The notes under the pieces were generated by a model that saw only the letters and a list, made by a program, of their open reading frames with translations, had not been told where the DNA came from and ran no database searches. Shown one piece after another: positions 4,372 through 36,531 of a DNA stretch of 64,000 nucleotides (the first letter of the stretch is position 1; every line of letters begins with the position of its first letter). The stretch spans positions 352,001 through 416,000 of the forward strand of contig OY970195.1 in the NCBI GenBank assembly GCA_963708185.1, written 5' to 3'. Position numbers and translations under genes: made by a program. This stretch comes from Candidatus Peregrinibacteria bacterium (lineage in GTDB: Bacteria > Patescibacteriota > Gracilibacteria > UBA1369).

Positions 4372-4381
4372 AAGGAGGTGA
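4372..4381 (+). promoter_or_regulatory. Extended Shine-Dalgarno sequence of rpsU
   Basis: AAGGAGGTGA, exactly complementary to the 16S 3' end TCACCTCCTT in this window; 6 nt before ATG 4388. Confidence 0.9.
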
Positions 4382-4387
4382 GACTGT

Positions 4388-16191: not shown

Positions 16192-16219
16192 TTGACAAAA
16201 ATAAAATTCATCCTAAGAT
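16192..16219 (+). promoter_or_regulatory. sigma70 promoter of small-ORF unit 1
   Basis: TTGACA-16 nt-TAAGAT. Confidence 0.6.
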
Positions 16220-16300
16220 GTTTGTTACTTTTTCGGGATTGAAGAAAAGTTTTCTGTTTATCAGCGGAAATGCTTATCTTTACCTGAAAAAGCGATATTT

Positions 16301-16697
16301 GGCAGCAAGGCAGGAGAGAGGTGTCCATGAGTTTGCCTTCAAGCATGCGTCCTCCGTCCAGCAGGAGGAAAGACCAGCTGGTGGATGAGCGTTTTCGTGA
16401 GTGGGAAGCTCGACAGAAGGCCGCTGGAAATCAGCCTGCAAAGCCTTCGTCTGCTCCCGCACGTGATGACAAGGCTCATCAGGGTCTCGACTTCGACGAC
16501 CGTGAAGAGCAGGGAGTCGATGGTGACGGGAAAGGGAAGTAGTCCAACGACCCCGACCCTCACGTTTGATCAACACTTTCAAGGAGGTGTCTCCCCGGAA
16601 TCGATGTCATGAAGTAGGTACGGAGCCGGAGAGGTAGGAACGCGCAGGACGCGTTCCGCCTCTCCGGCTACCGCCGACACTCCACTGTCTTGCTGCC
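16301..16697 (+). other. Long-range inverted-repeat-enclosed RNA unit
   Basis: GGCAGCAAGGCAG (16301-16313) pairs with CTGTCTTGCTGCC (16685-16697, one G-U); GTGTC/GACAC inner helix; hairpin 16624-16669. Confidence 0.75.
16327..16542 (+). CDS. Small hydrophilic orphan protein (71 aa) inside a structured transcript
   Basis: SD-like AGGAGAGAGGTG before ATG 16327; GC-rich relative to flanks. Confidence 0.5.
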   Translation: MSLPSSMRPPSSRRKDQLVDERFREWEARQKAAGNQPAKPSSAPARDDKAHQGLDFDDREEQGVDGDGKGK

Positions 16698-16797
16698 CTA
16701 TCCTTTTTAACTCAATTGTCATGAAATCATCGTTCATGTCTTTTGCATTGTCCAAAAATCTTCTATTATACCTTTGTTATTTTTTGTTTTTTGGTTT

Positions 16798-17766
16798 ATG
16801 AAACAAGTCCAAGTAGGGATTCTTGATTTCAGTAGTCTCAGCAGGCTTCGATCGGCACGCACCGCTGCCAGTTCGACCCCGCGCGAAGTGAAACTTCTCA
16901 AAAATACCGCCATCAAGCTGGGGCATATCGCCAAGATTTATAAGGTGGAAAACTGCCAGCTTTATTTCGACAACCGTAAACCGCTTATTCTTTATAAGAA
17001 CAAACCTATTAAAGGTTGCGATGTTCTGATTCCTCGAGTTTCCGTCGCCGGAGATATCGATCTGGAAATTTCCATCGTCAAACAGTTCAAGATGCTCGGT
17101 ATTCCCGTGGTGAACGATTATCTCCCCACGGTCCGCGCGAAGAATAAATTAAGGACATTGCAGATTTTAACGCACAGGGGAATTCCTGTGCCAAGAACCC
17201 TTGTGGTTCGTAAATTGGAATTTTTAGATGAAGGCATTCAGAAAGTTGGAGGCTATCCGGTCATCATTAAATCTCCCTTCGGTTCTTACGGGGTGGGGGT
17301 TGCCATTACGGAAAGCCGCAGATCGTTATATTCCTCACTGGATATGGTCTGGAAAACGACTTCCTCAAGTATCATTCTTATCCAGGAGTACGTTGCTGAA
17401 GCTGAAGGAAGCGATTTTCGGGCTTTCGTCATCGGAGGAAAAGTCGTTGCTTCGATGCAGCGTAAGGCTGTGCAGGGTGATTTCCGTTCGAACCTTCATC
17501 ACGGCGGTGAAGCCGTGAAAGTGAAACTCAGCACCGAGGAACAGAATCTCGCCATAAGGGCTGCTGAGGCTTTGGGGCTGGATCTTGCGGGAGTCGATCT
17601 CTTACGGACGAGAAAAGGTCCGGTGGTCATGGAGGTGAACGCCAATCCGGGTTTTGAGGGGTTGATGAAAATTACCGGGGTCGACATTGCGACGGAAATG
17701 GTGAAGTACGCCGTCTCGCTCTACAGGAAACAGCAGGAAGCCATCAAAAAGAAAAAGCGGTCCTGA
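16798..17766 (+). CDS. rimK: RimK family ATP-grasp alpha-L-glutamate ligase
   Basis: AKNKLRTLQIL, GIPVPRT, DFRAFVIG, DFRSNLHHGG, EVNANPG. Confidence 0.85.
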   Translation: MKQVQVGILDFSSLSRLRSARTAASSTPREVKLLKNTAIKLGHIAKIYKVENCQLYFDNRKPLILYKNKPIKGCDVLIPRVSVAGDIDLEISIVKQFKMLGIPVVNDYLPTVRAKNKLRTLQILTHRGIPVPRTLVVRKLEFLDEGIQKVGGYPVIIKSPFGSYGVGVAITESRRSLYSSLDMVWKTTSSSIILIQEYVAEAEGSDFRAFVIGGKVVASMQRKAVQGDFRSNLHHGGEAVKVKLSTEEQNLAIRAAEALGLDLAGVDLLRTRKGPVVMEVNANPGFEGLMKITGVDIATEMVKYAVSLYRKQQEAIKKKKRS

Positions 17767-17780
17767 TTTTCGGACATAGC

Positions 17781-17808
17781 AAAAACCCCCATGCAAGATG
17801 GGGGTTTT
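17781..17808. terminator. Bidirectional terminator rimK/clpP
   Basis: AAAACCCCCAT-GCAAG-ATGGGGGTTTT. Confidence 0.85.
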
Positions 17809-17826
17809 ATTGTTGTGAATGAATGC

Positions 17827-18450
17827 TTAGCGTTTGGTGATGATCTTATCGATCAATCCGTATTTCACTGAATCTTCTGCGGTCATGAAATTGTCGCGGT
17901 CGGTGTCTTTCTCAATGGTCTTCAAGGGCTGTTTGGTATGTTTTGCCAGAATGTTGTTCAAACGTTCTTTGGTCTTGATGATGTGCGTCGCATGGATGAA
18001 GATATCACTTGCCTGACCCTCAGCACCTCCCAAAGGCTGGTGAATCATGACTTCAGCGTTCGGAAGAGCGAACCGTTTTCCCGGGGCTCCTCCGGCGAGG
18101 AGGACGGCGCCCATCGATGCAGCAATGCCGATGCATACGGTCGAAACGTCGCATTGGATGAGCTGCATGGTGTCATAGATAGCCAGGCCCGCCGTGACAT
18201 GGCCTCCGGGACTCTGGATATACATGGTGATATCCTTTTTGGGGTTTTCGCTTTCCAGAAAGAGCAGCTGGGCGATGATGCTGTTGGCAACGGTATCATT
18301 GATGGCGCTGCCAAGGATGATGATGCGTTCTTTGAGGAGTCGAGAATAAATATCGTAAGCACGTTCACCCATATTGGTTTTTTCGATGACGGTGGGGATG
18401 AGTACGTTGTTTCTGATGGTCTCCACATGCTTGTTCTGGTCTTGTGTCAT
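17827..18450 (-). CDS. clpP: ATP-dependent Clp protease proteolytic subunit
   Basis: [21 protein letters not shown] and MIHQP motifs. Confidence 0.97.
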
Positions 18451-18494
18451 GCTGTTTTGCTATTAAAGGATGATGCTGTTATTCCACTTTTATT

Positions 18495-18521
18495 TTAGCA
18501 CACTTTGGCCGAGAGTGATAA
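18495..18521. promoter_or_regulatory. CIRCE element (HrcA operator) upstream of clpP
   Basis: TTAGCACAC-N9-GAGTGATAA versus consensus TTAGCACTC-N9-GAGTGCTAA (2 mismatches, exact spacing). Confidence 0.75.
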
Positions 18522-18568
18522 TCTGTAGAGTTGACTAATTTTAGAATCTGGCGGGAAATTATTTGTTT

Positions 18569-19876
18569 TTATTCATTGGAATAACGCAGAAGATAGACGA
18601 CTCCGGCTTTGTCGTCGCTGACAAGTATTTGTCCGTCGGGTTTGATGAAGATGTCGACAGGTCTCCCCAGTGCTCCATCTGGGGTCAGCCAACCGGTCAT
18701 GAAATCTTCCGGTGAATCGAACGTTAACGTTTGGTCATTGATGTTTGGATGTGTCTTCATCAAGACAATTTTGTATCCGGTCGGCACGCTGCGGTTCCAG
18801 GAACCGTGGAAAGTAACGAGAAGGTTTCCACGGTACTCTTCAGGCCATGTGTTTTTTTGGCCGTTCACTGTTTCGGAAACCGGGAAAAAAGCCAACCCCA
18901 GCGGAGCCGAATGGGCTTGCAGATCGATGACGGAAGGGGTTTCAAAAGGTGCTTCGCAAGGATTCCTTATATAGGTGTTGTGGTCGAAGTCGTCGTCGTG
19001 AATATTCTGACCATAGCAAATAGGCCAGCCGTAGTTTTTTCCCTCTTCAATCAGATTAATTTCATCGGGCGGAACATTGTTGCCCAGATAATCGCGACCC
19101 ATTTCGGTTGCGAAGATTTTTTCAAAGTAAGGATCGTGCGTCATGAAAACCGAATTTCTTAATCCGGTCGCGTAAGGTTTTAATTTCCCCGTTGTCGTAT
19201 CAAGAAGCATGATGGTGCCTCTGGTACTGTCCTGTTCCCGGCAGGCGTCGCAATCCGATCCGATGGAAACAAGGAGTTGATCGTTGGAGGGGGGATTTAA
19301 GAACTGAAGAGTTCTGGTGAAGTGTCTTCCCTCGCCGGAAAGATCAGTGATTTTTTTATCGAACGTCGCTTTCATCTTCTGCGTATCATAAAAGTACCGG
19401 GTGACCTTGTCGGTCTCTCCTATATAGAGCTGGCAGGTTGAGGAACTGTTCGGGTCCGGACAGTTGAACGCCATACCATGAGGTTTGTTCAGTCCTTTGA
19501 TGACCGTCACGTTGTTGTCCGCGACGCCGTCGCCGTTTGCATCAGGCAGCGCGACGATTTTCCCTTCCGAAGTCACGCTCGTCAGCATGACTCCGTCGGG
19601 GGCTTGGACCAAGACCCTGGGGTCGACGAGGTTTTTTGCGTAAATAGATATGCCGAATCCGTTTGGCGTTTGAAGAGGAGAGTCCGTTGTGGGGGATGTC
19701 CGATCCGCTTGCTGGCTTTGAGTCGAAGGCAGCGAAGGAATGAGCGTGCTAATGTCCTCAGGGGGATTTTGCAAAGCCGGACCAACCCCTTTCAGGTTTT
19801 GCAGGGAGAAAATGAAGCCCCATACCAGGATGCCGGCGATGATAAGTCCGATGAGTCCGTACGTCATTTTTTTCAT
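18569..19876 (-). CDS. Membrane-anchored PQQ-dependent sugar/sorbosone dehydrogenase family beta-propeller
   Basis: N-terminal TM; GRHFTR, GLRNS, PPDEIN, NYGWP, AHSAPLG, HGSWNR and GRPVD motifs. Confidence 0.88.
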   Translation of the reverse strand: MKKMTYGLIGLIIAGILVWGFIFSLQNLKGVGPALQNPPEDISTLIPSLPSTQSQQADRTSPTTDSPLQTPNGFGISIYAKNLVDPRVLVQAPDGVMLTSVTSEGKIVALPDANGDGVADNNVTVIKGLNKPHGMAFNCPDPNSSSTCQLYIGETDKVTRYFYDTQKMKATFDKKITDLSGEGRHFTRTLQFLNPPSNDQLLVSIGSDCDACREQDSTRGTIMLLDTTTGKLKPYATGLRNSVFMTHDPYFEKIFATEMGRDYLGNNVPPDEINLIEEGKNYGWPICYGQNIHDDDFDHNTYIRNPCEAPFETPSVIDLQAHSAPLGLAFFPVSETVNGQKNTWPEEYRGNLLVTFHGSWNRSVPTGYKIVLMKTHPNINDQTLTFDSPEDFMTGWLTPDGALGRPVDIFIKPDGQILVSDDKAGVVYLLRYSNE

Positions 19877-20000
19877 AAGTTTCCGGAAAGTTTTTTATAT
19901 TTTTTATTGTATTTGATATTTGATGAGAAGTGAATTTTGATTTTTCCCGGGTGTGTTTTTTGATGTCTTTGTTTGTCGGTTTCTTTTGGTGAAAAACATA

Positions 20001-20029
20001 TTGACTTTGGGAAGGCCTTTCACTAAAAT
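20001..20029 (+). promoter_or_regulatory. 16S rRNA promoter
   Basis: TTGACT-17 nt-TAAAAT, followed by boxA-like TGTTCTTTAACA at about 20073-20084. Confidence 0.75.
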
Positions 20030-20253
20030 TGCTCTGCTTTATGAACGATTCGTTGTTCATTTGGCTTTGGTTTGTTCTTTAACATCCAGGATGTAGTAGA
20101 GAAGATCTAGCGTTTGTCTTTGGCAAAGACCGTTTCATTTCGTGTCCGTCCCCGGACATGAAAAAACCGGAAACTGGTCAGAGACGTACTAAACTCAAAA
20201 ATAAGTCTTCGATTTCTTCATTGAAGTCGGAGCACAGCTTTCATCAAGCTCTT

Positions 20254-21755
<1,502 letters not shown>

Positions 21756-22055
21756 CTAGGAGATATCAGGGAACTTAGGGATTTTTATTTCTAAGCATTT
21801 TCCAGGTCGACCCTCGCTTCGGCGAGGTTTCTAGATCTCTCTCTACTACATTTTGGATGTTAAAGGTACAACCTTTCTTCTTTTCTCTCCTTTATAGGGG
21901 TATGAAATCTTCCAATAGTTTCAACAGGTCGAGTCAAAACATTGAGGTTTCGGTCCGAGCGCACAGCGCGAGGGCGTAAGCTGTGGCTTTGCTACACGCT
22001 GAAGCGTATCGATAGAAGAAAAACCTTATTTTTCAATTTTAACCCTCTCACACAC

Positions 22056-22325
22056 ATGGAAACTCAACAACTCACCTGCCAGGATTGTGGCAACACTTTT
22101 GATTTCACTGCAGAAGAACAACAGTTTTTTGCAGAAAAAGGATTTCAGGAACCAAAGCGCTGCCCTAATTGCCGAAAAGCAAAAAAGGAAGCTCATCGTC
22201 CTACCTTTACGAAGGTAACCTGTTCTGGCTGTGGGATGGAAACCGAGGTCCCGTTCGTACCAAAAGGCGACCGTCCGGTTTACTGCCGTGCTTGTTTTGA
22301 AAAGAACAAAGCAATGTCTGCGTAA
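22056..22325 (+). CDS. Zinc-ribbon / CxxC-x17-CxxC domain protein
   Basis: CQDC..FTAEEQQFF..PKRCPNCR and CSGC..VPFVP..RPVYCRAC. Confidence 0.88.
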   Translation: METQQLTCQDCGNTFDFTAEEQQFFAEKGFQEPKRCPNCRKAKKEAHRPTFTKVTCSGCGMETEVPFVPKGDRPVYCRACFEKNKAMSA

Positions 22326-22345
22326 TTACTGTTTAGGTAATTTGG

Positions 22346-22377
22346 AAGAGGATGTCTGGAAAGACATCCTCTTTTTT
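22346..22377 (+). terminator. Intrinsic terminator
   Basis: AAGAGGATGTC-TGGAAA-GACATCCTCTT plus T-run. Confidence 0.85.
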
Positions 22378-22389
22378 GTAGAAATTCGT

Positions 22390-22417
22390 TTGCAAATTCC
22401 GCGGCTTTCTTTATAAT
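22390..22417 (+). promoter_or_regulatory. Promoter for tRNA-Ala/tRNA-Ile
   Basis: TTGCAA-16 nt-TATAAT. Confidence 0.6.
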
Positions 22418-22522
22418 GATCGAGCTGTTTTGACAGTCAGGCTTTGCAAGTCGTCAATGGCTTGCAGGAGCGCAAAGATGTGGGCCCTTAGCACAAGCTA
22501 AGGTCCCACCGTTTACACTCGT

Positions 22523-22599
22523 GGGCCCTTAGCTCAGTTGGCCAGAGCGCCTCGTTTGCACCGAGGAGGTCAAGGGTTCGACTCCCTTAGGGTCCACCA
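22523..22599 (+). tRNA. tRNA-Ala(TGC)
   Basis: GGGCCCT...AGGGTCC-A-CCA with G3:U70; loop TTTGCAC. Confidence 0.96.
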
Positions 22600-22608
22600 G
22601 AATATTGC

Positions 22609-22685
22609 GGGCGAGTAGCTCAGTTGGTTAGAGCGCGTCACTGATAATGACGAGGTCGGAGGTTCAAATCCTCCCCCGCCCACCA
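22609..22685 (+). tRNA. tRNA-Ile(GAT)
   Basis: GGGCGAG...CCCGCCC-A-CCA; loop CTGATAA. Confidence 0.95.
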
Positions 22686-22754
22686 TGATAGAGTTCCCGG
22701 GACTCTTTTTTGTTTAATGCCTGATCCGGTTTCTGTTACAATGGCTACGATTTA

Positions 22755-23357
22755 ATGTTTTTTATGTCAGGAGAGCTGCTTGCCGCCATCGTTTTTGATC
22801 TTATCCTCTATGGAACTCTGGCTTGTGCGGCCATCCCTCTGCTGTTTTTTTTGTTGTGGACATTTTTCAACTTTTGGAAAAAATACTATCTTCTTTTTTA
22901 TTTTACGGGCATCGTTCTTTTGGCCGCGATTCCTACTGCTTTTTATTTTACGCAGCATTACTGGATTTATCTCTACTATCCTTTCCCCGCATGGGTGCAA
23001 ATCATCGGGCTGATACTTATTATTTTCAGTTATCTTGTCGTGAAACTGGCCCAGGCCTCCATCAGTGTTCCCGTTCGTTTCTTTTTTCCGGTTCTTAAAA
23101 ATCACCCCATTCAATTAAAGACGAAAGGCGTGTATCGATACGTCAGACACCCCATTTATGCGGTGTTTCCTTTGATTGTTATTGGTGGACTTTTGTATAC
23201 CGGCGAGCTGGTGCTTTTCCCGGTTTTCTTCCTGGTCCTTGTGACGAGGAAATGGTATGCCGTCAGGGAAGAGGCGTACCTCAAGCAAAACCTTCACGGT
23301 GACTATGAAAAATATATGAAACAGACTCCCAACCGTTTTTATCCTAAAATTTTTTAA
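22755..23357 (+). CDS. Isoprenylcysteine carboxyl methyltransferase / PEMT family membrane protein
   Basis: Multi-TM; LKTKGVYRYVRHPIY, EEAYL and YEKYMKQTPNRF. Confidence 0.85.
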   Translation: MFFMSGELLAAIVFDLILYGTLACAAIPLLFFLLWTFFNFWKKYYLLFYFTGIVLLAAIPTAFYFTQHYWIYLYYPFPAWVQIIGLILIIFSYLVVKLAQASISVPVRFFFPVLKNHPIQLKTKGVYRYVRHPIYAVFPLIVIGGLLYTGELVLFPVFFLVLVTRKWYAVREEAYLKQNLHGDYEKYMKQTPNRFYPKIF

Positions 23358-23359
23358 GT

Positions 23360-24190
23360 ATGATTTTTTATGCTCTCCATGTTCCGGGTGTTGAAGACGA
23401 AAGACTTGAACTGCTTCGTGCCGCCTGCAAACGTTTGAAGATTTCTTTCAGGGCGTTGTCGCCGTCCGGATTCGATTTTTCCAGGCCTTCCCCCGTGAGA
23501 AAAGGCGACATTGTCTATAGAATCAGCCGAGGTAAACTGCTTCGGTTTTTTGAGGATTACATCGTCAGGCCCGGTTGTATCACGTTTTATCAAGACGTCA
23601 TTTTCCATAAACCGGATCCATTTTTTCTTGAGAAGCATGACATTCCTGTTCCAAAAACCGTTTTTTGTCTCACCAGAGAGAAGAAGCTTTTGATGAACTA
23701 CGTGAAGGAGATCGGGGGATTCCCGGTCATTCTCAAAGCCTTGGGTGGAACGCACGGAATGGGGGTCATCAAAATTGACTCTTTTTCAGCGCTCAAAAGT
23801 ATGGCGGATTTTTTGTTAGCCCAGGGGAAATTGTTTGTGCTTAAACAGTTTTTACCCGTAAAGACTTCCGCACGTTTTATCGTTCTCGGGGATAAAGTCG
23901 TTGCCTCGATTGAATACGTCGCTCGGGACAATGACTTCCGGACGAATTCAGCCAAAACGCTCACTGTCCGTCCAAAAAAATATTCAAAAGCCCTTGAAGA
24001 ACTGGCGGTCAGAGCCACACACGCCATGGGTTGGGAGTTCGGTGGGGTTGATATTCTCATTCATAAAGGTAAACCTTACGTTTCCGAAGTGAATTTTCCC
24101 TGCAATTTTGTACGGGCTCAAAATGCCCTCAATAAGGACGTCGCTCTCCTTATGGTTCAATATCTTCAGGCAAAAGCGAAAAAACTTTAA
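23360..24190 (+). CDS. Divergent RimK-like ATP-grasp protein
   Basis: IPVPKT, GGFPVILK..GGTHGMGV, DFRTN, GVDI and EVN motifs. Confidence 0.8.
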   Translation: MIFYALHVPGVEDERLELLRAACKRLKISFRALSPSGFDFSRPSPVRKGDIVYRISRGKLLRFFEDYIVRPGCITFYQDVIFHKPDPFFLEKHDIPVPKTVFCLTREKKLLMNYVKEIGGFPVILKALGGTHGMGVIKIDSFSALKSMADFLLAQGKLFVLKQFLPVKTSARFIVLGDKVVASIEYVARDNDFRTNSAKTLTVRPKKYSKALEELAVRATHAMGWEFGGVDILIHKGKPYVSEVNFPCNFVRAQNALNKDVALLMVQYLQAKAKKL

Positions 24191-25287
24191 AGCAGGTCTC
24201 GGGTTATTTTGTCGATGATAAGGAATCCTTCATCGGTCGGACTCAGGAATCGTCCGTCCAAAACAAGTTCTTTGCTTTCTAGATAGGGTTGCGCCTTTTT
24301 GAGCAATTCGGATGTTTTTTTGAATCTCTTTTTGAATTCGGACGTGTCGATACCGCGTTTTGTTCGCAAACGAAGCATGATGTAATCGAGTTCACGCAGT
24401 TCAGCGTCCATGGGAACCTCTTCGTTCATATCGTCGGGGGTCGACAAATACCGGTCGAAGTCCCTCGTGTTTTCGGTACATTTGTCATTGATATAGGAGT
24501 GTGCGCCGATGCCGAGCCCAACGTACTCTTTTTGGCTCCAGTATCTTAAATTATGTTGGCATTCATAGCCGGGTTTTGCGTAGTTCGAAACTTCATAATG
24601 GTTGTATCCTGCTTTTCTTAAACGCGTGACAAGGTGTTCGTACATGGCGACCTGTACGTCGTCGTTGGGGCAGTCCGCTTTGAAAAGATCGATCTTTTTC
24701 GTGTCATAGGACAAGAAATAAAAAGAAAGGTGGGGGATATTGAGATCGAGGATTGTTGAGAGCTGGGTCTTGAAGTGTTGGAGCGTCTGGTGGGGGAGTC
24801 CGAGGATGAAGTCCGCACCGTAATTTTTCATGGGGGAACTGCGGATGGCATCAAGGGCTTTGAAGATGGTTTTGTCATCATGCGGACGGGCGATGCGGAA
24901 AAGAATTTTTTTGTCGAAATTCTGGATGCCGAGGGAGACGCGGGTTACTCCAGCTTGGTGATAGATCCTAAGTTTTTTTTCGTCGATGCTTTCCGGGTTG
25001 CATTCAATGGAGATTTCCGGTTTTTTTTGTATGTTAAAGCTGTGCCTGATGCATTGAAGGATATCCTCGATATAATGAGCTTCGATCAAACTCGGCGTTC
25101 CGCCACCGAAGTACAAGGTTTCGACCTGGTAATCCCGGAGTTCTTTAGACTTCAGCCCTATCTCTTTTTTGAGCGCTTCGACGTAATCAGGTATGAATTT
25201 GTTTTTATGGGCGAACGTCAGGAAATTACAATAGAGACAGATTGTTTTGCAAAAGGGGATATGGATGTAGAGAGAAAGGTCTTTCAT
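24187..25287 (-). CDS. hemW: Radical SAM HemW/HemN-like protein
   Basis: LYIHIPFCKTICLYC (CxxxCxxC), YFGGGTPS, HYEVSNY, HNLRYW. Confidence 0.88.
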   Translation of the reverse strand: MKDLSLYIHIPFCKTICLYCNFLTFAHKNKFIPDYVEALKKEIGLKSKELRDYQVETLYFGGGTPSLIEAHYIEDILQCIRHSFNIQKKPEISIECNPESIDEKKLRIYHQAGVTRVSLGIQNFDKKILFRIARPHDDKTIFKALDAIRSSPMKNYGADFILGLPHQTLQHFKTQLSTILDLNIPHLSFYFLSYDTKKIDLFKADCPNDDVQVAMYEHLVTRLRKAGYNHYEVSNYAKPGYECQHNLRYWSQKEYVGLGIGAHSYINDKCTENTRDFDRYLSTPDDMNEEVPMDAELRELDYIMLRLRTKRGIDTSEFKKRFKKTSELLKKAQPYLESKELVLDGRFLSPTDEGFLIIDKITRDLL

Positions 25288-25354
25288 GGTTGGTTCGATT
25301 GGATTGAAGCCGTTTTTATGCTATAATGATAGAAAGTTAACACACCTTCATAAT

Positions 25355-25606
25355 ATGGATCGTATTTTTGCAGCAGTCATCGGGATTCCCCTGGGGTTCC
25401 TCATGATGATCTACAGGTATCACCTTAAACAGTTTACAGGTCCTATTCAATGGGCAGAACAATATTTGGGGTCCGGAGGAACCTATAATCTTTTCATCAT
25501 TGTCGGTTTGTTGATTTCGATCGTTTCACTCATGTACGCTTTGGGTACGATTCAGGATCTTTTTACCAGCGGATTGGGTCCTATTTTCGGTGTCGGACAG
25601 AGCTAA
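25355..25606 (+). CDS. Small two-TM membrane protein
   Basis: 83 aa MDRIFAAVIG..WAEQYLGSGGTY; TATAAT at 25322 upstream. Confidence 0.7.
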   Translation: MDRIFAAVIGIPLGFLMMIYRYHLKQFTGPIQWAEQYLGSGGTYNLFIIVGLLISIVSLMYALGTIQDLFTSGLGPIFGVGQS

Positions 25607-25637
25607 AACCCTTCAGGAGAATTTCGTTAAAAATTTC

Positions 25638-25666
25638 TTGACTTCAGGTGACTGCTTACTTATAAT
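25638..25666 (+). promoter_or_regulatory. Dedicated 23S-5S promoter
   Basis: TTGACT-17 nt-TATAAT; boxA TGTTCTTTAACA at about 25806-25817. Confidence 0.8.
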
Positions 25667-25942
25667 GCAGTGGCCTCAATTTGAGATTGAGATTTACTGA
25701 ATGGTTTTTACCTCACAAATTTCGCCCATATCCCTAAGCTTAAAGTGCTGATTTCACTTGGTCAGGACTTTGAGTTGAGGGGTGTGTGCGAACACATCCC
25801 TTTTTTGTTCTTTAACAATTGGGCCTCAAAAGAATGATTGATAAATCAATCTGTAATTTCATTTGAGAGTTATTCAATAAACAATAGTATCATACTCAAT
25901 ATTAGCTGCGAGTATTCACTCACAGCTAGTTAAATGGATGAT

Positions 25943-29063
<3,121 letters not shown>

Positions 29064-29240
29064 TTCATCTTTATGTACATCTGTCAGTACTTAGTCCCGC
29101 GTTAAAACGGGATTGAGTACTGACAATCATGTACTCGTTTAACTAGCTTTGAGTGCAGACAAGCTAGAGAAATTACAGACATTTATCATTCAGTCTGCGA
29201 GGCCCTTGTTAAAACATTCAGGCCAGTGCTAAAAGGCACT

Positions 29241-29359
29241 GTCTTGGCAGCTCTAGAGAGTGGGTCACACCTGTTCCCATCCCGAACACAGCAGTTAAGC
29301 CACTCTTCGCCGATGATACTCATAGTATAACTAAGGGGAAAGTAGGGCGCTGCCAGGAC
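29241..29359 (+). rRNA. rrf: 5S rRNA
   Basis: TCTTGGCAG...CACCTGTTCCCATCCCGAACAC..GTTAAGC..GCCGATGATAC..AGTAGG..CTGCCAGGA. Confidence 0.95.
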
Positions 29360-29380
29360 AGTGCTTTTTAAATTGACTTT

Positions 29381-29947: not shown

Positions 29948-29960
29948 TCGACTGTGGATT

Positions 29961-30401: not shown

Positions 30402-30482
30402 AGGTGGAGGTTAGGGATAGTTGATTCTATACCATTTCTTTCTGAAAATGCAAGCATTTTCGTGACAAAACGTTGAGGGGCG

Positions 30483-32607: not shown

Positions 32608-32685
32608 TTGTGGCTGTGAATGGTGAGATGTATTTTAAACATATTCAGGTTAATTAGTCAAGTATTTTTGAGCACAAAATTCCTT

Positions 32686-32713
32686 AAAAACCCCGTGGAT
32701 TCTACGGGGTTTT
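32686..32713. terminator. Terminator downstream of the TraC-like gene
   Basis: AAAACCCCGTGGA-T-TCTACGGGGTTTT inverted repeat. Confidence 0.75.
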
Positions 32714-32751
32714 CTGTTTTCTGCCAACAGGATAATTGTTGTTCGATATAC

Positions 32752-33504
32752 TTACATACCTTGGTAATCTTGAACGATCTTTTCTTCGTCGGTCTGGACG
32801 TCGATGTCCTGGATCTCTTTGGCTTTTTCGTAACGTGCCACCGTCGGATTATAAATACCGTAAAAAAGCTCGATGAGTTCCTTGGTGGTGAGCTCTTCAG
32901 CCTTGAGTCCGCAGTTTTCAAGTCCCACCTTCACGGAACTTACGCGCTGAGCAAGTGATTTTTTAAGATTTTCAAATTCGTCATGGCGACGTTTGATGGC
33001 TTCGTAACTGTCTTTTGCATTCATGTTCTGGAAGAATTTCTGGAGGATGTTCAGTTTTTGAGATCTGACCGGGTCGACGGGAACAATGACAAGGAAGTCC
33101 TTTTCCATGATGTCGGCGTACTCCACGAGTTTTGAAATATATTCAACGTATTCGTAGGTTTGTGTCTGGAGGAGAGGGTTGGTCTGTTTTTCGCCGATTT
33201 TGCGGAGTTTGTCCAGGTAGTTGTCGATATCGAGTTTTTTTGATCTGACGACGACCTGAATCGGGAATTCGAGCGTGTTCAAAAATCCTTGATAGGAATA
33301 CACGATGGAGTTTTGTTCGTCTTCCGATTTGAGATTGAAATTGATACTTGAAACTCTGAGGATGGAACGCAGTCCTCCGTTTTTAAGAACAATCGTATCG
33401 TCCCGGATTTCTGAAATGCGCAGATAGGTTTGTGTACTTGTTGCCGGATTTTTTTTGGCCTGACCCTGCCGGGTTGATTCACTGTTTTGGCTTGGATTTG
33501 CCAT
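32752..33504 (-). CDS. TraC/VirB4 N-terminal-like protein of the CPR conjugation-like cluster
   Basis: STQTYLRISEIRDDTIVLKNG, SSINFNLKSEDEQ and FLNTLEFPIQ; follows a PrgI gene. Confidence 0.7.
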   Translation of the reverse strand: MANPSQNSESTRQGQAKKNPATSTQTYLRISEIRDDTIVLKNGGLRSILRVSSINFNLKSEDEQNSIVYSYQGFLNTLEFPIQVVVRSKKLDIDNYLDKLRKIGEKQTNPLLQTQTYEYVEYISKLVEYADIMEKDFLVIVPVDPVRSQKLNILQKFFQNMNAKDSYEAIKRRHDEFENLKKSLAQRVSSVKVGLENCGLKAEELTTKELIELFYGIYNPTVARYEKAKEIQDIDVQTDEEKIVQDYQGM

Positions 33505-33515
33505 AATAGAGAAGG

Positions 33516-33962
33516 TTATTGTTGAGGATTGTTGCTATGAGTGTTGAGAATCTTACTGAGTTCTTCAAGCTTTTTGGCCTTATTGGTCATCTGTTCGGCC
33601 TTTGCTTCGGCCTTTTTTTCAACTTTGGTTTGGGGTTTGCTGCTTGAATAGAGTGAGGTGAGAATTTCTGCACTGGACTGGACCCAGAATCTTTTTTGGG
33701 GAAGAAGGACAAACTCCAGGTAGACGGCCAGAAATCTGGAGAAGTTCATGTCGAGGGGACGCAGAAAGGCAAAAAGCAGGGTAATAATCGCTATAAAAGC
33801 AACCGGAGGCAGCCATGTGATCCACAAATATTCTTTTCCCAGACTTACGTAGATGGCATAGGCAAGACCTCCGCCGGCACCGCAAATGATGAGCTGCCGG
33901 AGGGTTAAAGGTCCGACGATTTTATCTTCACGCTGGACATTTTGTGGTACCTTGAATTGCAT
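33516..33962 (-). CDS. PrgI family membrane protein
   Basis: MQFKVPQNVQREDKIVGPLTLRQL plus two TM helices. Confidence 0.82.
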   Translation of the reverse strand: MQFKVPQNVQREDKIVGPLTLRQLIICGAGGGLAYAIYVSLGKEYLWITWLPPVAFIAIITLLFAFLRPLDMNFSRFLAVYLEFVLLPQKRFWVQSSAEILTSLYSSSKPQTKVEKKAEAKAEQMTNKAKKLEELSKILNTHSNNPQQ

Positions 33963-34111
33963 GACACTGGGAGTTCGATGGTTATTTATTCTTTTTATTA
34001 TAGCAGAAATTGCGTGAAGCTACAATGTTTGCTAGACTCTCTGCGACTTGCAAAGGAAGACTGAATTTTAAGACGGAAAGTTCCTTGTTGTATAAAAATT
34101 TTGCTCACTAA

Positions 34112-35926
34112 ATGCGCGACAGTTCCAATATCAGAAATTTTTGTATTATTGCCCATATAGATCACGGAAAGTCCACGCTTGCCGATCGTTTTTTGGAGGT
34201 GACGGCAACCTTGAGCAAACGTGAAATGAAACACGGTCAGCTTTTGGATACGATGGACCTTGAACAAGAACGTGGAATTACGATTAAACTTCAGCCGGTC
34301 AGGATGAACTGGAAGCATGAGGGCAAAGATTATATTTTGAACCTTATCGATACTCCAGGCCACGTGGATTTTTCCTATGAAGTTTCGAGAAGTCTGGCAG
34401 CCTGCGAAGGGGCCATTCTCGTGGTCGATGCCACGCAGGGGATTGAGGCCCAGACTTTGGCGAATTGCTATCTGGCCCTTGAACATGACCTTAAACTCGT
34501 TCCTGTCTTGAACAAGATAGATCTTCCCTCTGCAGATATCGAAAGGAGAGCGCAGGAAATCGAAAATACGCTGGGGATCCCCAAGGAGGAGATTATCGCC
34601 ATTTCAGCGAAGGAGGGGACGAATGTGGAAAAGGTTCTTCAGGCCGTGATCGAACGAATTCCTCCGCCTCCTAATACCGACGAAGGTGACGAGACAAAAG
34701 CGCTTATTTTTGATTCGGTATACGATTCATACCGGGGCGTGGTGACGTACGTGAGGCTTATGTCCGGCGAACTGAAGCGTGGAGACAAGATTTTTTTGCT
34801 TCATAACAAAAAGGAGCTTGAAGTGCTCGAAGTCGGTTATTTTAAGCCTAAATATCAGGCCGCCGACAAACTTGTTTCGGGTGAGGTCGGGTATGTGGTT
34901 TCGGGCTTGAAAAACGTCGGTGACGCCCGTGTTGGCGACACTATCTGGAAGCCAGGAACGAAGCCTTTGGACCCCCACGCGGCCAAGCCGCTCGCAGGAT
35001 ATAAAGTCGTGAAGCCCTACGTTTTTGCCAGTATTTTTTGCGTGGACGGCGATGATTTTCCTTTACTCAGAGACGCTTTGCAGAAGCTCCAGTTGAGCGA
35101 TTCGGCGTTGAGTTTCGAACCTGAACAGTCGGGAGCGTTGGGACATGGCTTCCGCTGTGGATTTTTGGGGCTTTTGCATCTGGATATCGTTCAGGAAAGG
35201 TTGGAGCGGGAGTATGACCTCAATTTGATCGTTACGGCACCTTCTGTGTCTTATATTGCAATTTTAAACAGTGGAGAAGAGGTTTTTGTAGCCAATCCGT
35301 CTGATCTTCCCGACCCGGCGAAACTGATAGTTATTAAAGAGCCTTGGGTGAAGGTGGAAATTTTGACGCCCAAAGAGTACGTGGGCACGATCATGCAGAT
35401 GACCTTGGAGAAAAGAGGCTTGAATAAAAGTATTCAATACATTGATGAAAACCGGGTAATTTTACTTTTTGAGGTCCCTTTAGCTTCGATTGTGGTCGAT
35501 TATTATGACTTATTAAAGAGCCTGAGTTCGGGATACGCTTCCATGAATTATGAGTATCTTGAATATCGGGAAGGCAATCTCGTCAAATTGGATATGCTTA
35601 TCGCTGGCGAGAAGGTGGATGCGCTTTCAATGATTGTCCATAGAGATCAGGCCTATTATATAGGTTCAGATATGTGTAAAAAGTTGAAGGAACTTATCCC
35701 AAAGCACCAGTTTGAAGTGGCTATTCAGGCGGCGATTGGGAGCAAAGTCATCGCCCGTGAAAGCATCAGTGCGATGAGAAAAGACGTAACGGCTAAACTG
35801 TACGGAGGTGACAGGACGCGTAAAGACAAGCTTTTGAAGAAACAAAAAGCGGGGAAAAAGCGCATGAAGAAGGTCGGAAAGGTTGATCTTCCACAAGAAG
35901 CCTTCCTGGCCATTTTAAAGAAATAA
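34112..35926 (+). CDS. lepA: Elongation factor 4
   Basis: IRNFCIIAHIDHGKSTLAD, GFRCGFLGLLH, KLLKKQKAGKKRMK. Confidence 0.98.
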   Translation: MRDSSNIRNFCIIAHIDHGKSTLADRFLEVTATLSKREMKHGQLLDTMDLEQERGITIKLQPVRMNWKHEGKDYILNLIDTPGHVDFSYEVSRSLAACEGAILVVDATQGIEAQTLANCYLALEHDLKLVPVLNKIDLPSADIERRAQEIENTLGIPKEEIIAISAKEGTNVEKVLQAVIERIPPPPNTDEGDETKALIFDSVYDSYRGVVTYVRLMSGELKRGDKIFLLHNKKELEVLEVGYFKPKYQAADKLVSGEVGYVVSGLKNVGDARVGDTIWKPGTKPLDPHAAKPLAGYKVVKPYVFASIFCVDGDDFPLLRDALQKLQLSDSALSFEPEQSGALGHGFRCGFLGLLHLDIVQERLEREYDLNLIVTAPSVSYIAILNSGEEVFVANPSDLPDPAKLIVIKEPWVKVEILTPKEYVGTIMQMTLEKRGLNKSIQYIDENRVILLFEVPLASIVVDYYDLLKSLSSGYASMNYEYLEYREGNLVKLDMLIAGEKVDALSMIVHRDQAYYIGSDMCKKLKELIPKHQFEVAIQAAIGSKVIARESISAMRKDVTAKLYGGDRTRKDKLLKKQKAGKKRMKKVGKVDLPQEAFLAILKK

Positions 35927-35931
35927 GGGTA

Positions 35932-35960
35932 TTGACCAAATTAAGTAAATATGGTATAAA
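35932..35960 (+). promoter_or_regulatory. sigma70 promoter of small-ORF unit 2
   Basis: TTGACC-17 nt-TATAAA with extended -10 TG. Confidence 0.65.
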
Positions 35961-36017
35961 ATATCTGTGGTTTATCATGAAAATACAACAGTATTTTTTC
36001 TGTGGTAAATCCAATCA

Positions 36018-36388
36018 GATCTTTGAAAACTTGTGTAAGGACATCTTGAATGGAAGACTGGTGCTTCAAATTAAGCGCTATACTCCCATTCAAGATAAAC
36101 GGCTTTTAGCCACTATTTCGGACATATATGTCCGAGGAGAAAAAGAGAACATGAGCAAGAACACTGTTTCCGTCGTCGTCGCTTCGAACTCTTTCTTCAG
36201 CAACCTGAGCGAGCTCGACAAGCTGCTCGCTTTGTGGGCCCTGAGCCTCGGCTACATGCCGGTTATCGGCTTGATGCTGATGACCATCGGCAAGTAAAGC
36301 GGACCGCAGGGCCTCCCCGCCATTCTGTTTTCGGAATGTGCGGGGAGCCCATGGCCCTTTCTCCTGAATAATCCTTATGCAAGTTTTC
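36018..36388 (+). other. boxA-led RNA unit enclosed by a long-range duplex
   Basis: GATCTTTGAAAA at 36018; 36025-36041 pairs with 36372-36388 (17 bp, two G-U); AGGAGAAA 36135-36142 pairs with TTTCTCCT 36358-36365; hairpins 36043-36096, 36118-36135 and 36309-36350. Confidence 0.8.
36151..36297 (+). CDS. 48-aa peptide with hydrophobic C-terminal segment
   Basis: SD AGGAG upstream; MSKNTVSVVVASNSFFSNLSELDKLLALWALSLGYMPVIGLMLMTIGK. Confidence 0.6.
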   Translation: MSKNTVSVVVASNSFFSNLSELDKLLALWALSLGYMPVIGLMLMTIGK

Positions 36389-36531
36389 TATTCTTTCGAT
36401 CACTAAGCGCTGAAAAGCGTTTTTTTTGTGTTTCGGTCCTTCGCGTCGACTCAGCTTGGCAATTTTGGCTTTTTTTGGTATACTATAAAGATAAATTTGG
36501 TCTTCACTCCAAAATAAATATCAACACCAAC

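Follow-up and report, generated by a model that had tools for sequence, protein, structure and literature searches.

Two compact units lie on the plus strand of a 64,000-nt stretch of DNA (the window) from Candidatus Peregrinibacteria bacterium (GCA_963708185.1, contig OY970195.1, positions 352,001–416,000, forward strand): locus 1 at window positions 16192–16708 and locus 2 at 35932–36422. Both show the same layout, namely a sigma-70-type promoter, a 5′ hairpin, a long-range helix formed by a 5′ and a 3′ arm, one or more SD-led ORFs, a GC hairpin, a pyrimidine anti-SD tract, and a U-tract. Every part that a preliminary description had listed for the two loci was found again in its place. The units were compared with those of the genus genomes G000, G002, G003, and G004 and of the metagenome contigs L080 and L086.

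The promoter scan placed the locus 1 promoter, TTGACA-16-TAAGAT, at 16192–16219 with 10/12 matches, and its counterpart in G004 was read by eye as TTGACA-N17-TAGACT. The MFE structure contains a 5′-terminal hairpin (16228–16292), after which the 5′ arm GGCAGCAAGGCAG (16301–16313) pairs with the 3′ arm CTGTCTTGCTGCC (16685–16697). The same arms were also recovered in a promoter-anchored scan, and the 5′ arm is kept in G004, where a C-to-U change produces a G·U pair. An SD-like tract, AGGAGAGAGGTG (16312–16323), ends 3 nt before the ATG and gives an SD–ASD duplex of −13.2 kcal/mol; in the MFE structure, it is paired with 3′-proximal positions 452–469 of 474. The ORF (16327–16542) encodes a hydrophilic, acidic protein of 71 aa that belongs to no family: a Pfam search gave no match, and apart from the G004 orthologue (28 identical residues over 69 aligned codons), zero relatives were found among 5.8 billion proteins searched. 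Nucleotide differences at the three codon positions were 30/24/40, which is modest coding evidence. The 3′ UTR contains a perfect SD-like CAAGGAGGTG (16580–16589) that is conserved in G004, with no conserved ORF downstream of it in the two species. A large GC hairpin (16617–16672; MFE), the anti-SD GACACTCC (16676–16683), the 3′ arm, and a U-tract (16702–16708) complete the unit; boxA is absent from locus 1. This unit was present in only two of the four genus genomes with an examinable site, and in G002 and G003, the site is an intergenic gap of ~135 nt from which the unit is missing.

Locus 2 starts with TTGACC-17-TATAAA, with a TG upstream of the −10 element (35932–35960, read from the sequence); the simple promoter scan did not register it, as the sixth position of the −10 element is A. 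Likewise, TTGAC-N17-TAT(A/T)3 was observed at this locus in G002, G003, and G004. The 5′-terminal hairpin (35967–36012; MFE) is followed by the boxA-like GATCTTTGAAAA (36018–36029), which overlaps the 5′ arm GAAAACTTGTGTAAGGA (36025–36041). The motif within it, GATCTTTGAAA, departs from the genome's own rRNA boxA at two positions, and the G003 site is GTTCATTGAAAA. The layout put forward in the preliminary description stands; its boxA in locus 2 is boxA-like. A conserved inner hairpin (36043–36096; MFE) precedes the SD GAGGAG (36134–36139; with its spacer to the ATG, 36134–36150), whose duplex amounts to −8.7 kcal/mol and which is paired with the 3′-proximal pyrimidine tract in the MFE structure. 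The ORF at 36151–36297 encodes peptide A, of 48 aa with a C-terminal membrane helix (in-frame coding score 0.31). Its block W-A-L-x-L-G-Y-x-P is invariant, and different codons are used at 9 of 25 identical residues; the nucleotide differences at the three codon positions (18/15/20, 21/13/17, and 20/14/13) again provide modest coding evidence, and a single relative was found among 5.8 billion proteins. Downstream are a large GC hairpin (36309–36350), the anti-SD CCTTTCTCCT (36356–36365; sequence and MFE), and the 3′ arm TCCTTATGCAAGTTTTC (36372–36388), which pairs with the 5′ arm and is followed by a U-rich tract; hairpin and 3′ arm appear in both the MFE structure and the consensus alignment. 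The terminator scan placed a canonical intrinsic terminator at about 36405–36430. In the 25 other-genus genomes with enough sequence after lepA, the next long ORF lies 22–506 nt after that gene and locus 2 was seen in none; among the genomes compared, it is confined to the genus.

The cargo of locus 2 sits between conserved 5′ and 3′ modules and changes with the species: peptide A in G000, A and C in G002, lipoprotein B in G003, and B and A in G004. In G003, a lipoprotein of about 110 aa is the sole cargo. Overall, the units encode small membrane peptides, Cys-rich lipoproteins, and one small acidic protein, with signal peptides carrying lipoboxes, or membrane helices, among their features; peptides A and C (29 aa) are small and combine a hydrophobic helix with a basic end. 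The RNA modules are more conserved than the cargo, and the locus 2 leader retains 73–80% identity. A properly spaced SD precedes every cargo ORF family, internal ORFs included (two species for the locus 1 peptide, three for peptide A, two for lipoprotein B, one for peptide C, and four for the locus 3 lipoprotein described below), and the internal SDs lie outside any long-range helix. The cargo varies inside a conserved RNA frame and, judged from the sequences searched, appears to consist of genus-restricted orphans. An earlier suggestion that the units could be transferred to SD-using host ribosomes found no support, since the cargo signals are those expected of proteins destined for the cell's own envelope, and the relatives found were confined to the genus or its close kin.

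The two loci had been proposed to represent a class with one layout, and a third member was found outside the window, at genome positions 573587–575176 on the minus strand, with its parts in the same order. Arms of 15 bp, separated by 1.5 kb, pair with each other in its 1560-nt MFE structure, and both are kept in 5/5 orthologues (G000, G002, G003, G004, and L080; span 1.4–1.7 kb), counting L086, a twin of L080 in the same context, together with it as one. The boxA-like motif of locus 3 is one position off the rRNA boxA. Its cargo is a 341-aa lipoprotein with a GC3 of 0.90, and the SD pairs locally in the 1560-nt fold, not with the 3′ tract. A genome-wide scan for TCTTT[AG]A[AC]A with a perfect 14-bp partner 100–3600 nt downstream returned 3 of 106 sites, which were exactly 16S, locus 2, and locus 3. 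This rate is not above that of random sites (8/600), and the argument rests on the identity of the sites. The promoter-anchored arm scan yielded 15 candidates versus 5 in the control, 13-bp chance pairings being common, and its atpB/atpE candidate was rejected as clearly such a pairing. No second copy of any locus was found in the genome.

In the same window, the 16S leader carries the boxA GTTCTTTAACA, which continues into the 5′ arm of the processing stem (20076–20089, +; partner 21853–21866), and the 23S leader has boxA and 5′ arm at 25808–25870 (+), with the partner, judged complementary by eye, at about 29165–29215. The 5′ arm begins inside the boxA-like motif in loci 2 and 3 as well, in agreement with the previously noted resemblance to the rRNA stems, which was recovered by scan for 16S and by eye for 23S. 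The genes for RNase III (rnc) and NusB (nusB) are present and adjacent to each other. A search with PF07497 detected no Rho RNA-binding domain; thus, a Rho-linked mechanism is unlikely here.

The 3′ end of the 16S rRNA is CACCTCCTTTCT. SD–ASD duplexes of −8 kcal/mol or stronger were observed at 2.5% of 946 crude gene starts compared with 9.6% of 3000 random positions, confirming that the genome is SD-poor. The claim that the two loci and rpsU are the only SD-bearing genes was too narrow; a handful more occur genome-wide (e.g., 195660, 434959, 456294, 899113, and 1000255). The bS21-like gene (rpsU; 4370–4594, +; ORF 4388–4594) does carry the SD ascribed to it, a perfect, extended GGAAGGAGGTGA of −21.0 kcal/mol; the match of its product to bS21 is below the family thresholds (Pfam S21, E 0.0034, 17.5 bits versus a cut-off of 27; TIGR00030, 17.8 bits versus 28.95). 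The combination of an SD-poor genome and a perfect SD on this gene is conserved across the family (10/10 aligned).

Both window units fold strongly. The MFE was −219.5 kcal/mol for locus 1 (z −7.97) and −185.7 kcal/mol for locus 2 (z −11.21), with 0/100 shuffles as stable in either case, and the opposite strands folded more weakly by 22 and 15 kcal/mol, respectively. All six orthologous units from same-genus genomes independently folded into end-paired structures (z −5.3 to −11.7; 25 shuffles each), the sample being three units of one genus whose orthologues are non-independent. Across four species, three helices of locus 2 comprise 53 consensus pairs, or 212 cells, of which 185 are Watson–Crick, 25 are G·U, and 2 are non-pairs, and five pairs changed on both sides. 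These are the arms (16 pairs, 63/64 cells paired, two pairs compensatory), the 5′-terminal hairpin (17 pairs, two changed on both sides), and the inner hairpin (20 pairs, one compensatory, no broken cells). The 25 G·U cells against 2 non-pairs, together with the weaker opposite strands, support the earlier proposal that selection acts on the plus-strand RNA. The first SD was paired with the 3′-proximal tract in 5/6 MFE structures, the exception being G002 locus 2, where it pairs locally. At 13–17 uninterrupted pairs, the closing helices are on the short side for a classical RNase III site.

The analysis shows the anatomy of the units and its conservation, strand-specific covariation, the genome-wide rarity of SDs, and that nusB and rnc are present. 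We consider it fairly probable that the loci are autonomous transcription units in one genus of Candidatus Peregrinibacteria/Peribacteria, in which an mRNA is packaged like the cell's own pre-rRNAs. To a similar degree, we favor reading them as stable, end-paired, SD-masked mRNAs that are controlled post-transcriptionally.

Two other explanations, each improbable, come closest. The units might be type I toxin–antitoxin loci of the hok/sok or aapA/isoA kind, in which a membrane-toxin mRNA is kept inert by 5′–3′ pairing, activated by 3′ processing, and neutralized by an antisense RNA. Such pairing with SD masking is a hallmark design in the accounts of these systems cited here (PMC5416894, PMC6733600), peptides A and C have the expected character, the units are lineage-specific insertions, and the well-conserved locus 2 leader could conceal an antisense gene. 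However, the same frame holds lipoproteins, as sole cargo in G003 and of 341 aa in locus 3, and locus 1 encodes an acidic, hydrophilic protein. Furthermore, the minus-strand promoter scan found nothing within locus 2 or inside locus 1, where the one promoter-like site (16754–16726) lies outside the unit and overlaps the neighbor's promoter, and no locus has a second genomic copy. The toxin reading stays a rival for the peptides only. Equally improbable is a reading that makes the RNA the functional product, as a stable structured or dual-function molecule that might titrate, for example, the 16S 3′ tail or a protein, with the ORFs secondary. The conservation of the RNA modules beyond the cargo, the CAAGGAGGTG kept in two species without an ORF behind it, the weak codon-position evidence for the small ORFs, and the presence in the genome of several further large structured RNAs that belong to no known family are consistent with this. 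Against it stand the properly spaced SDs before each ORF, including internal ones outside the long-range helices, the lipobox-bearing signal peptides, the GC3 of the 341-aa ORF, and the invariant block of peptide A with its differing codons at identical residues.

It is less probable still that these are ordinary, highly structured mRNAs whose hairpins are plain stabilizers or terminators and whose long-range pairing is functionless. Only three units are available, and the promoter-anchored scan showed how readily 13-bp pairings arise by chance, yet conservation of the arms includes compensatory changes, every independent MFE structure shows them paired, all locus 3 orthologues retain them across 1.4–1.7 kb, and the boxA junction is common to loci 2 and 3 and the rRNA stems. 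Least probable of all, the arms would be terminal inverted repeats bounding small cassettes that move or recombine, as the insertion of both loci relative to kin and the species-dependent cargo would allow, but the G·U cells would become A·C mismatches if the other strand, or a DNA cruciform, were the folding form, the plus strand folds better, neither extra genomic copies nor matches in the viral contigs searched were found, no recombinase adjoins, and the arms lie inside a promoter-to-terminator unit.

For end-paired, SD-masked mRNAs, we propose the following mechanism. A sigma-70-type promoter would start an RNA with a protective hairpin at its 5′ end; in loci 2 and 3, the boxA-like element would come next and run straight into the 5′ arm. 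The SD-led ORFs for membrane peptides, Cys-rich lipoproteins, or the small acidic protein would follow, and then the GC-rich hairpin, a pyrimidine tract able to pair with the first ORF's SD, and the 3′ arm, with transcription probably ending at the U-tract. The product would be a closed, very stable RNA whose first ribosome-binding site is masked in most predicted folds; such SD-masked dormancy, in which the closed form is long-lived and translationally silent, is slightly favored. The boxA-like element may help by letting NusB/NusE hold the 5′ arm at the polymerase until the 3′ arm emerges, and this Nus involvement is possible but somewhat doubtful. Expression would depend on opening or cutting of the closing helix. 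RNase III, acting as it does on pre-rRNA, would be the simplest agent, and 3′ trimming of the hok/aapA1 type is an alternative; cleavage by RNase III is put forward tentatively, and no feature of the units suggested circularization. Once opened, initiation would proceed through SD–ASD pairing, and that, in this SD-avoiding lineage, only ribosomes without the bS21-like protein might translate the units seems unlikely.

Among known systems, the pre-rRNA leader and trailer show the same order, in which a promoter-proximal boxA leads into a 5′ arm whose pairing partner, the 3′ arm, lies past the enclosed RNA; the 16S and 23S of this genome have this junction, and nusB and rnc are present. In contrast, the units enclose an SD-bearing message predicted to be translated, their boxA-like motif is 1–2 positions off or, in locus 1, lacking, a U-tract follows the 3′ arm, and cleavage is putative. 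Staphylococcal RNAIII with hld is a dual-function structured RNA encoding a peptide; there, too, a small ORF is enclosed by a large conserved fold (about 0.4–0.5 kb), whereas the cargo of the units is variable and regulatory RNA activity is without support here. The hok and aapA1 mRNAs share the long-distance 5′–3′ pairing that masks a small ORF's SD in a stable full-length RNA, and some cargo is likewise a small membrane peptide. However, the units also carry lipoproteins of 110–341 aa and a hydrophilic protein, swap multi-ORF cargo in one frame, and include boxA, and the scans of loci 1 and 2 found no antisense promoter; thus, the analogy drawn in the preliminary description fits the RNA design but not most of the cargo. 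As outlined in PMC5725501, BoxA elements regulate non-rRNA genes, and a proposed BoxA–polymerase RNA loop would block 30S access. In E. coli suhB and the lambda N leader, the boxA lies in the mRNA leader and influences translation over a distance; nutL lies about 200 bp upstream of N with a highly structured leader between, and N with Nus factors represses N translation, modulated by the leader structure and RNase III (PMC5725501). There, structure is confined to the leader, whereas here the helix encloses the whole message. Finally, the SD-blind ribosomes of Flavobacterium johnsoniae (Bacteroidia) offer a parallel in their intact ASD, SD avoidance, and extended rpsU SD of ~−20 kcal/mol, as described in PMC9976891 and PMC13000453. 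The present lineage belongs to the CPR phylum, its bS21 is divergent, and sequestration of its ASD is putative. In F. johnsoniae, rpsU is described as the sole gene with an obvious SD, whereas here a few more genes are SD-led, and end-paired frames surround three of these.

Locus 1 (window 16192-16708) and locus 2 (window 35932-36422) had been described as two unrelated sequences sharing one layout, and all of its elements were found in place: promoter, 5′ arm, Shine-Dalgarno sequence (SD), short orphan ORF, large GC hairpin, pyrimidine tract (anti-SD) and 3′ arm. The two arms are the halves of a long-range helix that closes the unit, and they paired with each other in the minimum-free-energy (MFE) structures of both loci. 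As a 491-nt RNA, locus 1 folded to -219.5 kcal/mol (z -7.97), and locus 2, as a 466-nt RNA, folded to -185.7 kcal/mol (z -11.21); 0 of 100 shuffles was as stable in either case. No Rfam family was found for either locus. Six orthologous units from this genome (G000) and three same-genus genomes (G002, G003 and G004) were folded singly against 25 shuffles each, and every one was end-paired. The z-scores were -10.6 (G000), -7.0 (G004), -7.1 (G002) and -6.2 (G003) for locus 2, and -11.7 (G000) and -5.3 (G004) for locus 1. In G004, the closing helix encloses ~780 nt.

The preliminary description had supposed a class of such units, and this was borne out by a third member outside the window with the same order of parts. 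This unit, locus 3 (genome 573587-575176, minus strand; 188-1777 of the fetched stretch L072), was reached by combining the positions of the boxA-like word with a stable-structure scan, in which plain Lfold was applied to 281 intergenic intervals of at least 250 nt bounded by crude ORF calls. It begins with the promoter TTGACA-17-TATCAT and a 5′ hairpin, after which a boxA-like stretch, GTTCTTTGAAAACTCGCAGAAG, runs into the 5′ arm and is followed by further hairpins. The boxA-like word, GTTCTTTGAAAAC, joins a 15-nt arm pairing 1.5 kb downstream. The SD GGAG, nine nt before the ATG, leads an ORF for a 341-aa lipoprotein with a signal peptide, a lipobox and C-x-G-x-C-G-x-G-T-x-C repeats, and the 3′ side comprises, in order, GC hairpins, CCTCCTCCTCTTC, the 3′ arm CTTCTGCGAGTTTTTC and a U-tract. 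The arms, 1.5 kb apart, are paired in the MFE structure of the 1560-nt RNA. Both were kept in 5/5 orthologues, including those of G002, G003, G004 and a metagenome contig, with one base different in the G002 3′ arm. A metagenome pattern search with the locus 3 arm gave 26 matches, two of which were real relatives (contigs L080 and L086, in the same context).

Two other scans for units were run across the genome. The promoter-anchored arm scan gave hits at 15/185 promoter-like sites vs 5 in a reversed-arm control and recovered locus 1, locus 3 and 16S; locus 2 was missed because of the filter for at least 5 G or C, and a match at atpB/atpE was due to chance. A flank duplex scan (300 nt upstream vs 300 nt downstream of 1082 genes; median -119 kcal/mol) ranked the three loci 295th, 792nd and 860th, and it was uninformative, since this method produces long, imperfect duplexes.

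Several other structured regions were observed. Adjoining locus 3 is an island of secreted and lipoprotein paralogues (L073, genome 576300-581150, minus strand) with a fraction of G or C at third codon positions (GC3) of 0.72-0.86. Its leader holds structured elements of 426 nt and 204 nt behind its own TTGACA-17-TATAAT promoter, with a hairpin that contains a GATCTTTGAAAA word and a purine tract that precedes a possible Arg-rich ORF of 27 aa; no Rfam match was found for this leader. Other well-folding intergenic stretches of 300-470 nt were located at genome 713521-714827(-), 722906-723377(+), 256041-257001(+), 1361363-1361952(+), 1408033-1408374(+) and 844679-845046(+), none of which matched an Rfam family at E <= 0.01. 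The element at 1408033 contains two near-identical long hairpins. Among 18 other structured regions, Rfam gave nothing credible beyond tRNAs and a sub-threshold SAM riboswitch (fetched stretch L058, 1-85, minus strand; genome ~92700-92785), whose match, cut off at the end of the stretch, scored 38.7 bits against a gathering threshold of 44.4 (E 7.4e-6).

In four species of the genus (G000, G002, G003 and G004), locus 2 sits in the interval from lepA to a gene for a substrate-binding protein. Its promoter (TTGAC-N17-TAT(A/T)3, with TG upstream) is kept in all four, as are the 5′ hairpin, boxA-like motif, 5′ arm and 54-nt inner hairpin and, on the 3′ side, the GC hairpin, pyrimidine tract, 3′ arm and U-rich tract. 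DNA search and ORF scan did not show the unit in 25 family genomes from other genera for which sufficient sequence was available; in these, the lepA stop is followed by the next long ORF at a distance of 22-506 nt. Locus 1 is found at the same site in G004; the gap at this site is ~135 nt in G002 and G003 vs ~700 nt in G000. Neither locus has a second copy in the genome. These site comparisons with kin indicate that locus 1 and locus 2 are young, lineage-specific insertions. The locus 2 inner hairpin gave 0 matches in the metagenome pattern search.

The cargo of locus 2 differs between species. It is the 48-aa peptide A in G000, peptide A and the 29-aa hydrophobic peptide C in G002, the Cys-rich lipoprotein B in G003, where the reading frame continues beyond the extracted end, and lipoprotein B with peptide A in G004. 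Lipoprotein B, whose orthologues were aligned, and the locus 3 protein have a common Cys-rich module, a likeness read by eye. This Cys-rich lipoprotein family was found only in this genus among 25 genera sampled, with 5 relatives among 5.8 billion proteins. No cargo protein has a family in Pfam or NCBIfam, and peptide A has no relatives in viral contigs. A 782-aa paralogue showed a sub-threshold MopE motif; the Dickkopf_N/DUF7107 Cys-rich clusters (0.82) of a protein atlas were weak leads and were not used as evidence. The lipoproteins are clearly coding. Peptide A scored 0.31 in its own frame under a codon model, with at most 0.11 in the other five, and its W-A-L-x-L-G-Y-x-P block is invariant at an overall identity of ~50%. 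Its differences are spread evenly over the codon positions (18/15/20, 21/13/17 and 20/14/13), with no clear third-position excess; those of the locus 1 peptide are 30/24/40. By eye, 42/48 peptide A codons have G or C in the third position, and GC3 is 0.90 in the locus 3 lipoprotein, making both outliers against the median of 0.61 for 1076 crude genes. A GC3 of at least 0.78 occurs in only a few real genes, wider GC-island and GC3 listings being noisy. A presumed ribosomal-protein cluster, assigned from one uL23-like ORF, has a median GC3 of 0.59 (n=20); thus, a high GC3 probably does not signal high expression. For the locus 1 ORF, GC3 is ordinary (~0.54, counted by eye). If the proposed working is right, the cargo is made up of genus-specific surface lipoproteins and membrane peptides, the kind of protein expected at an episymbiont-partner interface.

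Every family of cargo ORFs carries an SD at proper spacing. Given as motif and spacing to the ATG, these are GAGGTG-3 (G000) and AAGGTG-4 (G004) for the locus 1 peptide; GAGGAG-11 (G000), GAGGAGA-9 (G002) and GGAGGA-4 (G004) for peptide A; AAGGAGA-6 (G004) and AAGGAG-7 (G003) for lipoprotein B; AGGAGGT-5 (G002) for peptide C; and GGAG-9 (G000), AAGGA-9 (G002), AGGAG-9 (G003) and AAGGAG-7 (G004) for the locus 3 lipoprotein. Internal cargo ORFs, outside the long-range helix, have an SD too, so these purine tracts are not merely helix halves. In the preliminary description, SDs had been found only in these units and rpsU. Further SD-led genes exist at genome 195660 (pseudopilin-like), 455217, 456294 and 899113 (lipoproteins), and 434959 and 1000255 (secreted or membrane proteins); loose SD lists were too noisy for use.

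The first alternative is that the units are type I toxin-antitoxin loci of the hok/sok or aapA/isoA kind, in which 5′-3′ pairing masks the SD of the full-length mRNA. Such masking is predicted here, the SD of the first ORF pairing with the pyrimidine tract beside the 3′ arm in all MFE structures but that of G002 locus 2 (5/6); nor is the SD paired with the 3′ tract in the long fold of locus 3. Type I toxin ORFs are small (< ~60 aa) and hydrophobic. Peptides A and C, at 48 and 29 aa, are of this kind; the hydrophilic 71-aa protein of locus 1, the ~110-aa lipoprotein B and the 341-aa lipoprotein of locus 3 are not, so that this explanation fits only part of the cargo. The antisense antitoxin gene of a type I locus would overlap or adjoin the toxin mRNA; a consensus promoter scan showed no minus-strand site within locus 2 or inside locus 1. 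The second alternative is a functional RNA whose ORFs are incidental. It stays in play because the RNA modules are strongly conserved and because an orphan, perfect SD-like CAAGGAGGTG lies in the locus 1 3′ UTR (window 16580-16589). This element is conserved in G004 and has no conserved ORF behind it; it might bind the tail of 16S, another possible partner being CACTCCAC, close to the 3′ arm.

A cassette acting at the DNA level would fit the insertion pattern, but it is contradicted by the lack of further copies and by the asymmetry of G.U pairs. RNAalifold with four full-length locus 2 sequences gave a 5′ hairpin of 17 pairs, a closing helix of 16 and an inner hairpin of 20. Of the 212 cells in these three helices, 185 are Watson-Crick, 25 are G.U and 2 are unpaired. 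Read on the opposite strand, each G.U cell would become an A.C mismatch, which argues against a DNA-level inverted repeat. The opposite strands folded to -197.5 (locus 1) and -170.5 kcal/mol (locus 2), so that the plus strand is favored by 22 and 15 kcal/mol, respectively. Selection on RNA, to which the preliminary description had taken the G-U pairs to point, is thus supported. Five pairs in the alignment have changes on both sides, and this covariation, drawn from four related sequences, is suggestive and short of statistical proof. Chance pairing is contradicted by the conservation of the units.

The boxA at both rRNA leaders (16S and 23S) of this genome is GTTCTTTAACA. For comparison, the Firmicute rrn boxA is TTCTTTGAAAACT. 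The sequence GTTCTTTAACA matches perfectly the gamma-proteobacterial consensus GYTCTTTAANA (PMC5725501), and the BoxA lists behind that paper might bear on the accepted range of TTTGAAAA variants. The boxA-like elements of locus 3 (GTTCTTTGAAA) and locus 2 (GATCTTTGAAA) have one and two mismatches, respectively; GTTCATTGAAA occupies the position in G003 locus 2, and locus 1 has no boxA. A scan for boxA plus an inverted repeat was carried out in this genome with TCTTT[AG]A[AC]A on both strands. A 5′ half starting inside the motif or just after it had to pair over 14 bp without a mismatch, with 12 or more Watson-Crick pairs, to a partner 100-3600 nt downstream. The scan found 16S, locus 2 and locus 3, and these were the only such sites (3/106); as the random rate was 8/600, the count alone is not significant. 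The weight of the scan lies in the three sites being the promoter-proximal sites of structured units. The claim that the boxA overlaps the 5′ arm as at the rRNA genes agrees with the scan for 16S and with inspection by eye for 23S, whose flanks pair likewise from the 3′ half of the boxA.

The rRNA operon itself is split (window 20254-29358): 16S is followed by an 87-aa ORF (~22057-22325, four-cysteine and zinc-ribbon-like), tRNA-Ala and tRNA-Ile, and three ORFs; 23S and 5S come next, behind a promoter and boxA of their own. The match to 23S is 3116 nt long vs 2925 in the model, probably reflecting insertions. NusB (115.2 bits, above the cut-off) and RNase III (139.1 bits) are both encoded in the genome, their genes, nusB and rnc, lying adjacent on the same strand (genome 667052-667969, minus strand; fetched stretches L066 and L067). 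The RNA-binding domain of Rho was not found in the genome with PF07497.

The genome, a single contig of 1,437,033 bases with 49.8% GC in which the window occupies 352001-416000, is poor in SDs, as had been claimed. Its 16S rRNA ends in CACCTCCTTTCT, indicating that the anti-SD (ASD) is intact. Nevertheless, the mean SD-ASD duplex energy was -2.3 kcal/mol at 946 crude gene starts vs -4.1 at 3000 random positions, and only 2.5% of these starts vs 9.6% of the random positions reached -8 kcal/mol or lower. Motif counts at gene starts showed the same avoidance, and “C. Peribacter riflensis” is listed among SD-scarce organisms in a table of PMC10783764. At window 4388-4594 is a 68-aa basic protein with a Ribosomal_S21 match that covers nearly the whole model below threshold (Pfam E 0.0034, 17.5 bits; TIGR00030 17.8 bits), on which its putative identity as bS21 rests. 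Upstream is GGAAGGAGGTGA, a perfect extended SD (gene with SD, window 4370-4594; loci L107-L116) with an SD-ASD energy of -21.0 kcal/mol. The protein was present in 30/31 family genomes, and the extended SD [GA]AAGG[AG]GGTGA lay 5-6 nt before the ATG in 10/10 aligned ones. A study of CPR ribosomes reports bS21 to be frequently absent from Peregrinibacteria (PMC9297842); the sub-threshold scores suggest that this absence is a detection miss.

In Bacteroidia-type SD-blind ribosomes, the 16S 3′ tail is sequestered by bS21, bS18 and bS6. The present genome has in common with them an intact ASD and genome-wide SD avoidance, and the extended SD of their rpsU, ~ -20 kcal/mol, resembles the -21.0 of the bS21-like gene. 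Judged from the sequences, a Bacteroidia hallmark thus appears in a CPR family reported to lack bS21. If this is right, the features that mark SD-blind ribosomes (an ASD left intact, avoidance of SDs and an rpsU with a perfect SD) would reach beyond Bacteroidia to a Candidatus Peregrinibacteria family. Patescibacteria and candidate phyla are mentioned 0 times in two Flavobacterium papers, and a small keyword literature search found no link of Peregrinibacteria to SD-blind ribosomes, which does not establish absence from print.

To the extent that sequence can establish it, these loci are genuine transcription units, and the RNA that they yield folds back to close on itself. The closed form would hide the first ribosome-binding site and guard both ends, the 5′ end by its hairpin and the 3′ end by burial in the closing helix, followed by the U-tract. 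Judging from the folds, we lean slightly towards the closed RNA being a stable, SD-masked, poorly translated message. At loci 2 and 3, the boxA-like element would recruit NusB/E, and the 5′ arm would remain with the polymerase up to the point where the 3′ arm is synthesized; by analogy with rRNA, such Nus involvement is quite possible without being probable. A tether of this kind has been proposed for rRNA and looped BoxA RNAs, in which BoxA holds the RNA at the polymerase (PMC5725501), and here it would explain how a helix closes over 0.4-1.7 kb of GC-rich RNA. Since a U-tract comes after the 3′ arm, the closing helix could double as a terminator stem. As in RNase III-processed precursors, a helix is predicted from the sequences flanking the enclosed RNA. 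Its continuous pairs number 13 (locus 1), 16-17 (locus 2) and 15 (locus 3), set against the ~two dsRNA turns expected for RNase III, and beyond an internal loop the SD/anti-SD helix lengthens the closing helices. That RNase III cuts this helix and so matures or activates the mRNA is a more tentative suggestion.

Translation would then require SD-ASD pairing and be favored on ribosomes without the bS21-like protein, which, drawn from the Flavobacterium precedent for bS21/SD-dependent translation (PMC9976891, PMC13000453), seems rather unlikely. Improbable as a whole is a two-tier expression in CPR, where a few envelope genes would have the machinery of rRNA transcribe and fold their messages: the 5′ arm would be tethered by boxA/Nus, the closing helix would set the 3′ end as well, and RNase III would mature the RNA. 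The messages would be kept in ribosome-proof, closed particles and read only once SD-competent, bS21-free ribosomes appear. If it were true, ribosome composition would switch on a surface-protein program. The interpretation in the preliminary description is therefore partly supported: its mechanism is plausible and unproven, and nothing in the data points to the circular RNA or the transfer to host ribosomes that it had also raised.

If the proposed working is true, the boxA and processing-stem architecture, thought to be an rRNA (and phage) device, also frames protein-coding messages. The units would also be a natural case of SD use as an exception, limited to a few specially packaged mRNAs, and would offer a handle on the purpose of SD-ASD pairing in SD-avoiding lineages. 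A small keyword literature search turned up no mRNAs described as lying within an rRNA-type frame, although absence from print is not thereby established. Three known devices are combined in these units: from pre-rRNA, the frame of boxA and processing stem; from type I toxin mRNAs, the fold that masks the SD over a long distance; and from suhB and the lambda N leader, BoxA-dependent mRNA control. We regard the units as a variant of known devices rather than as a member of any one family.
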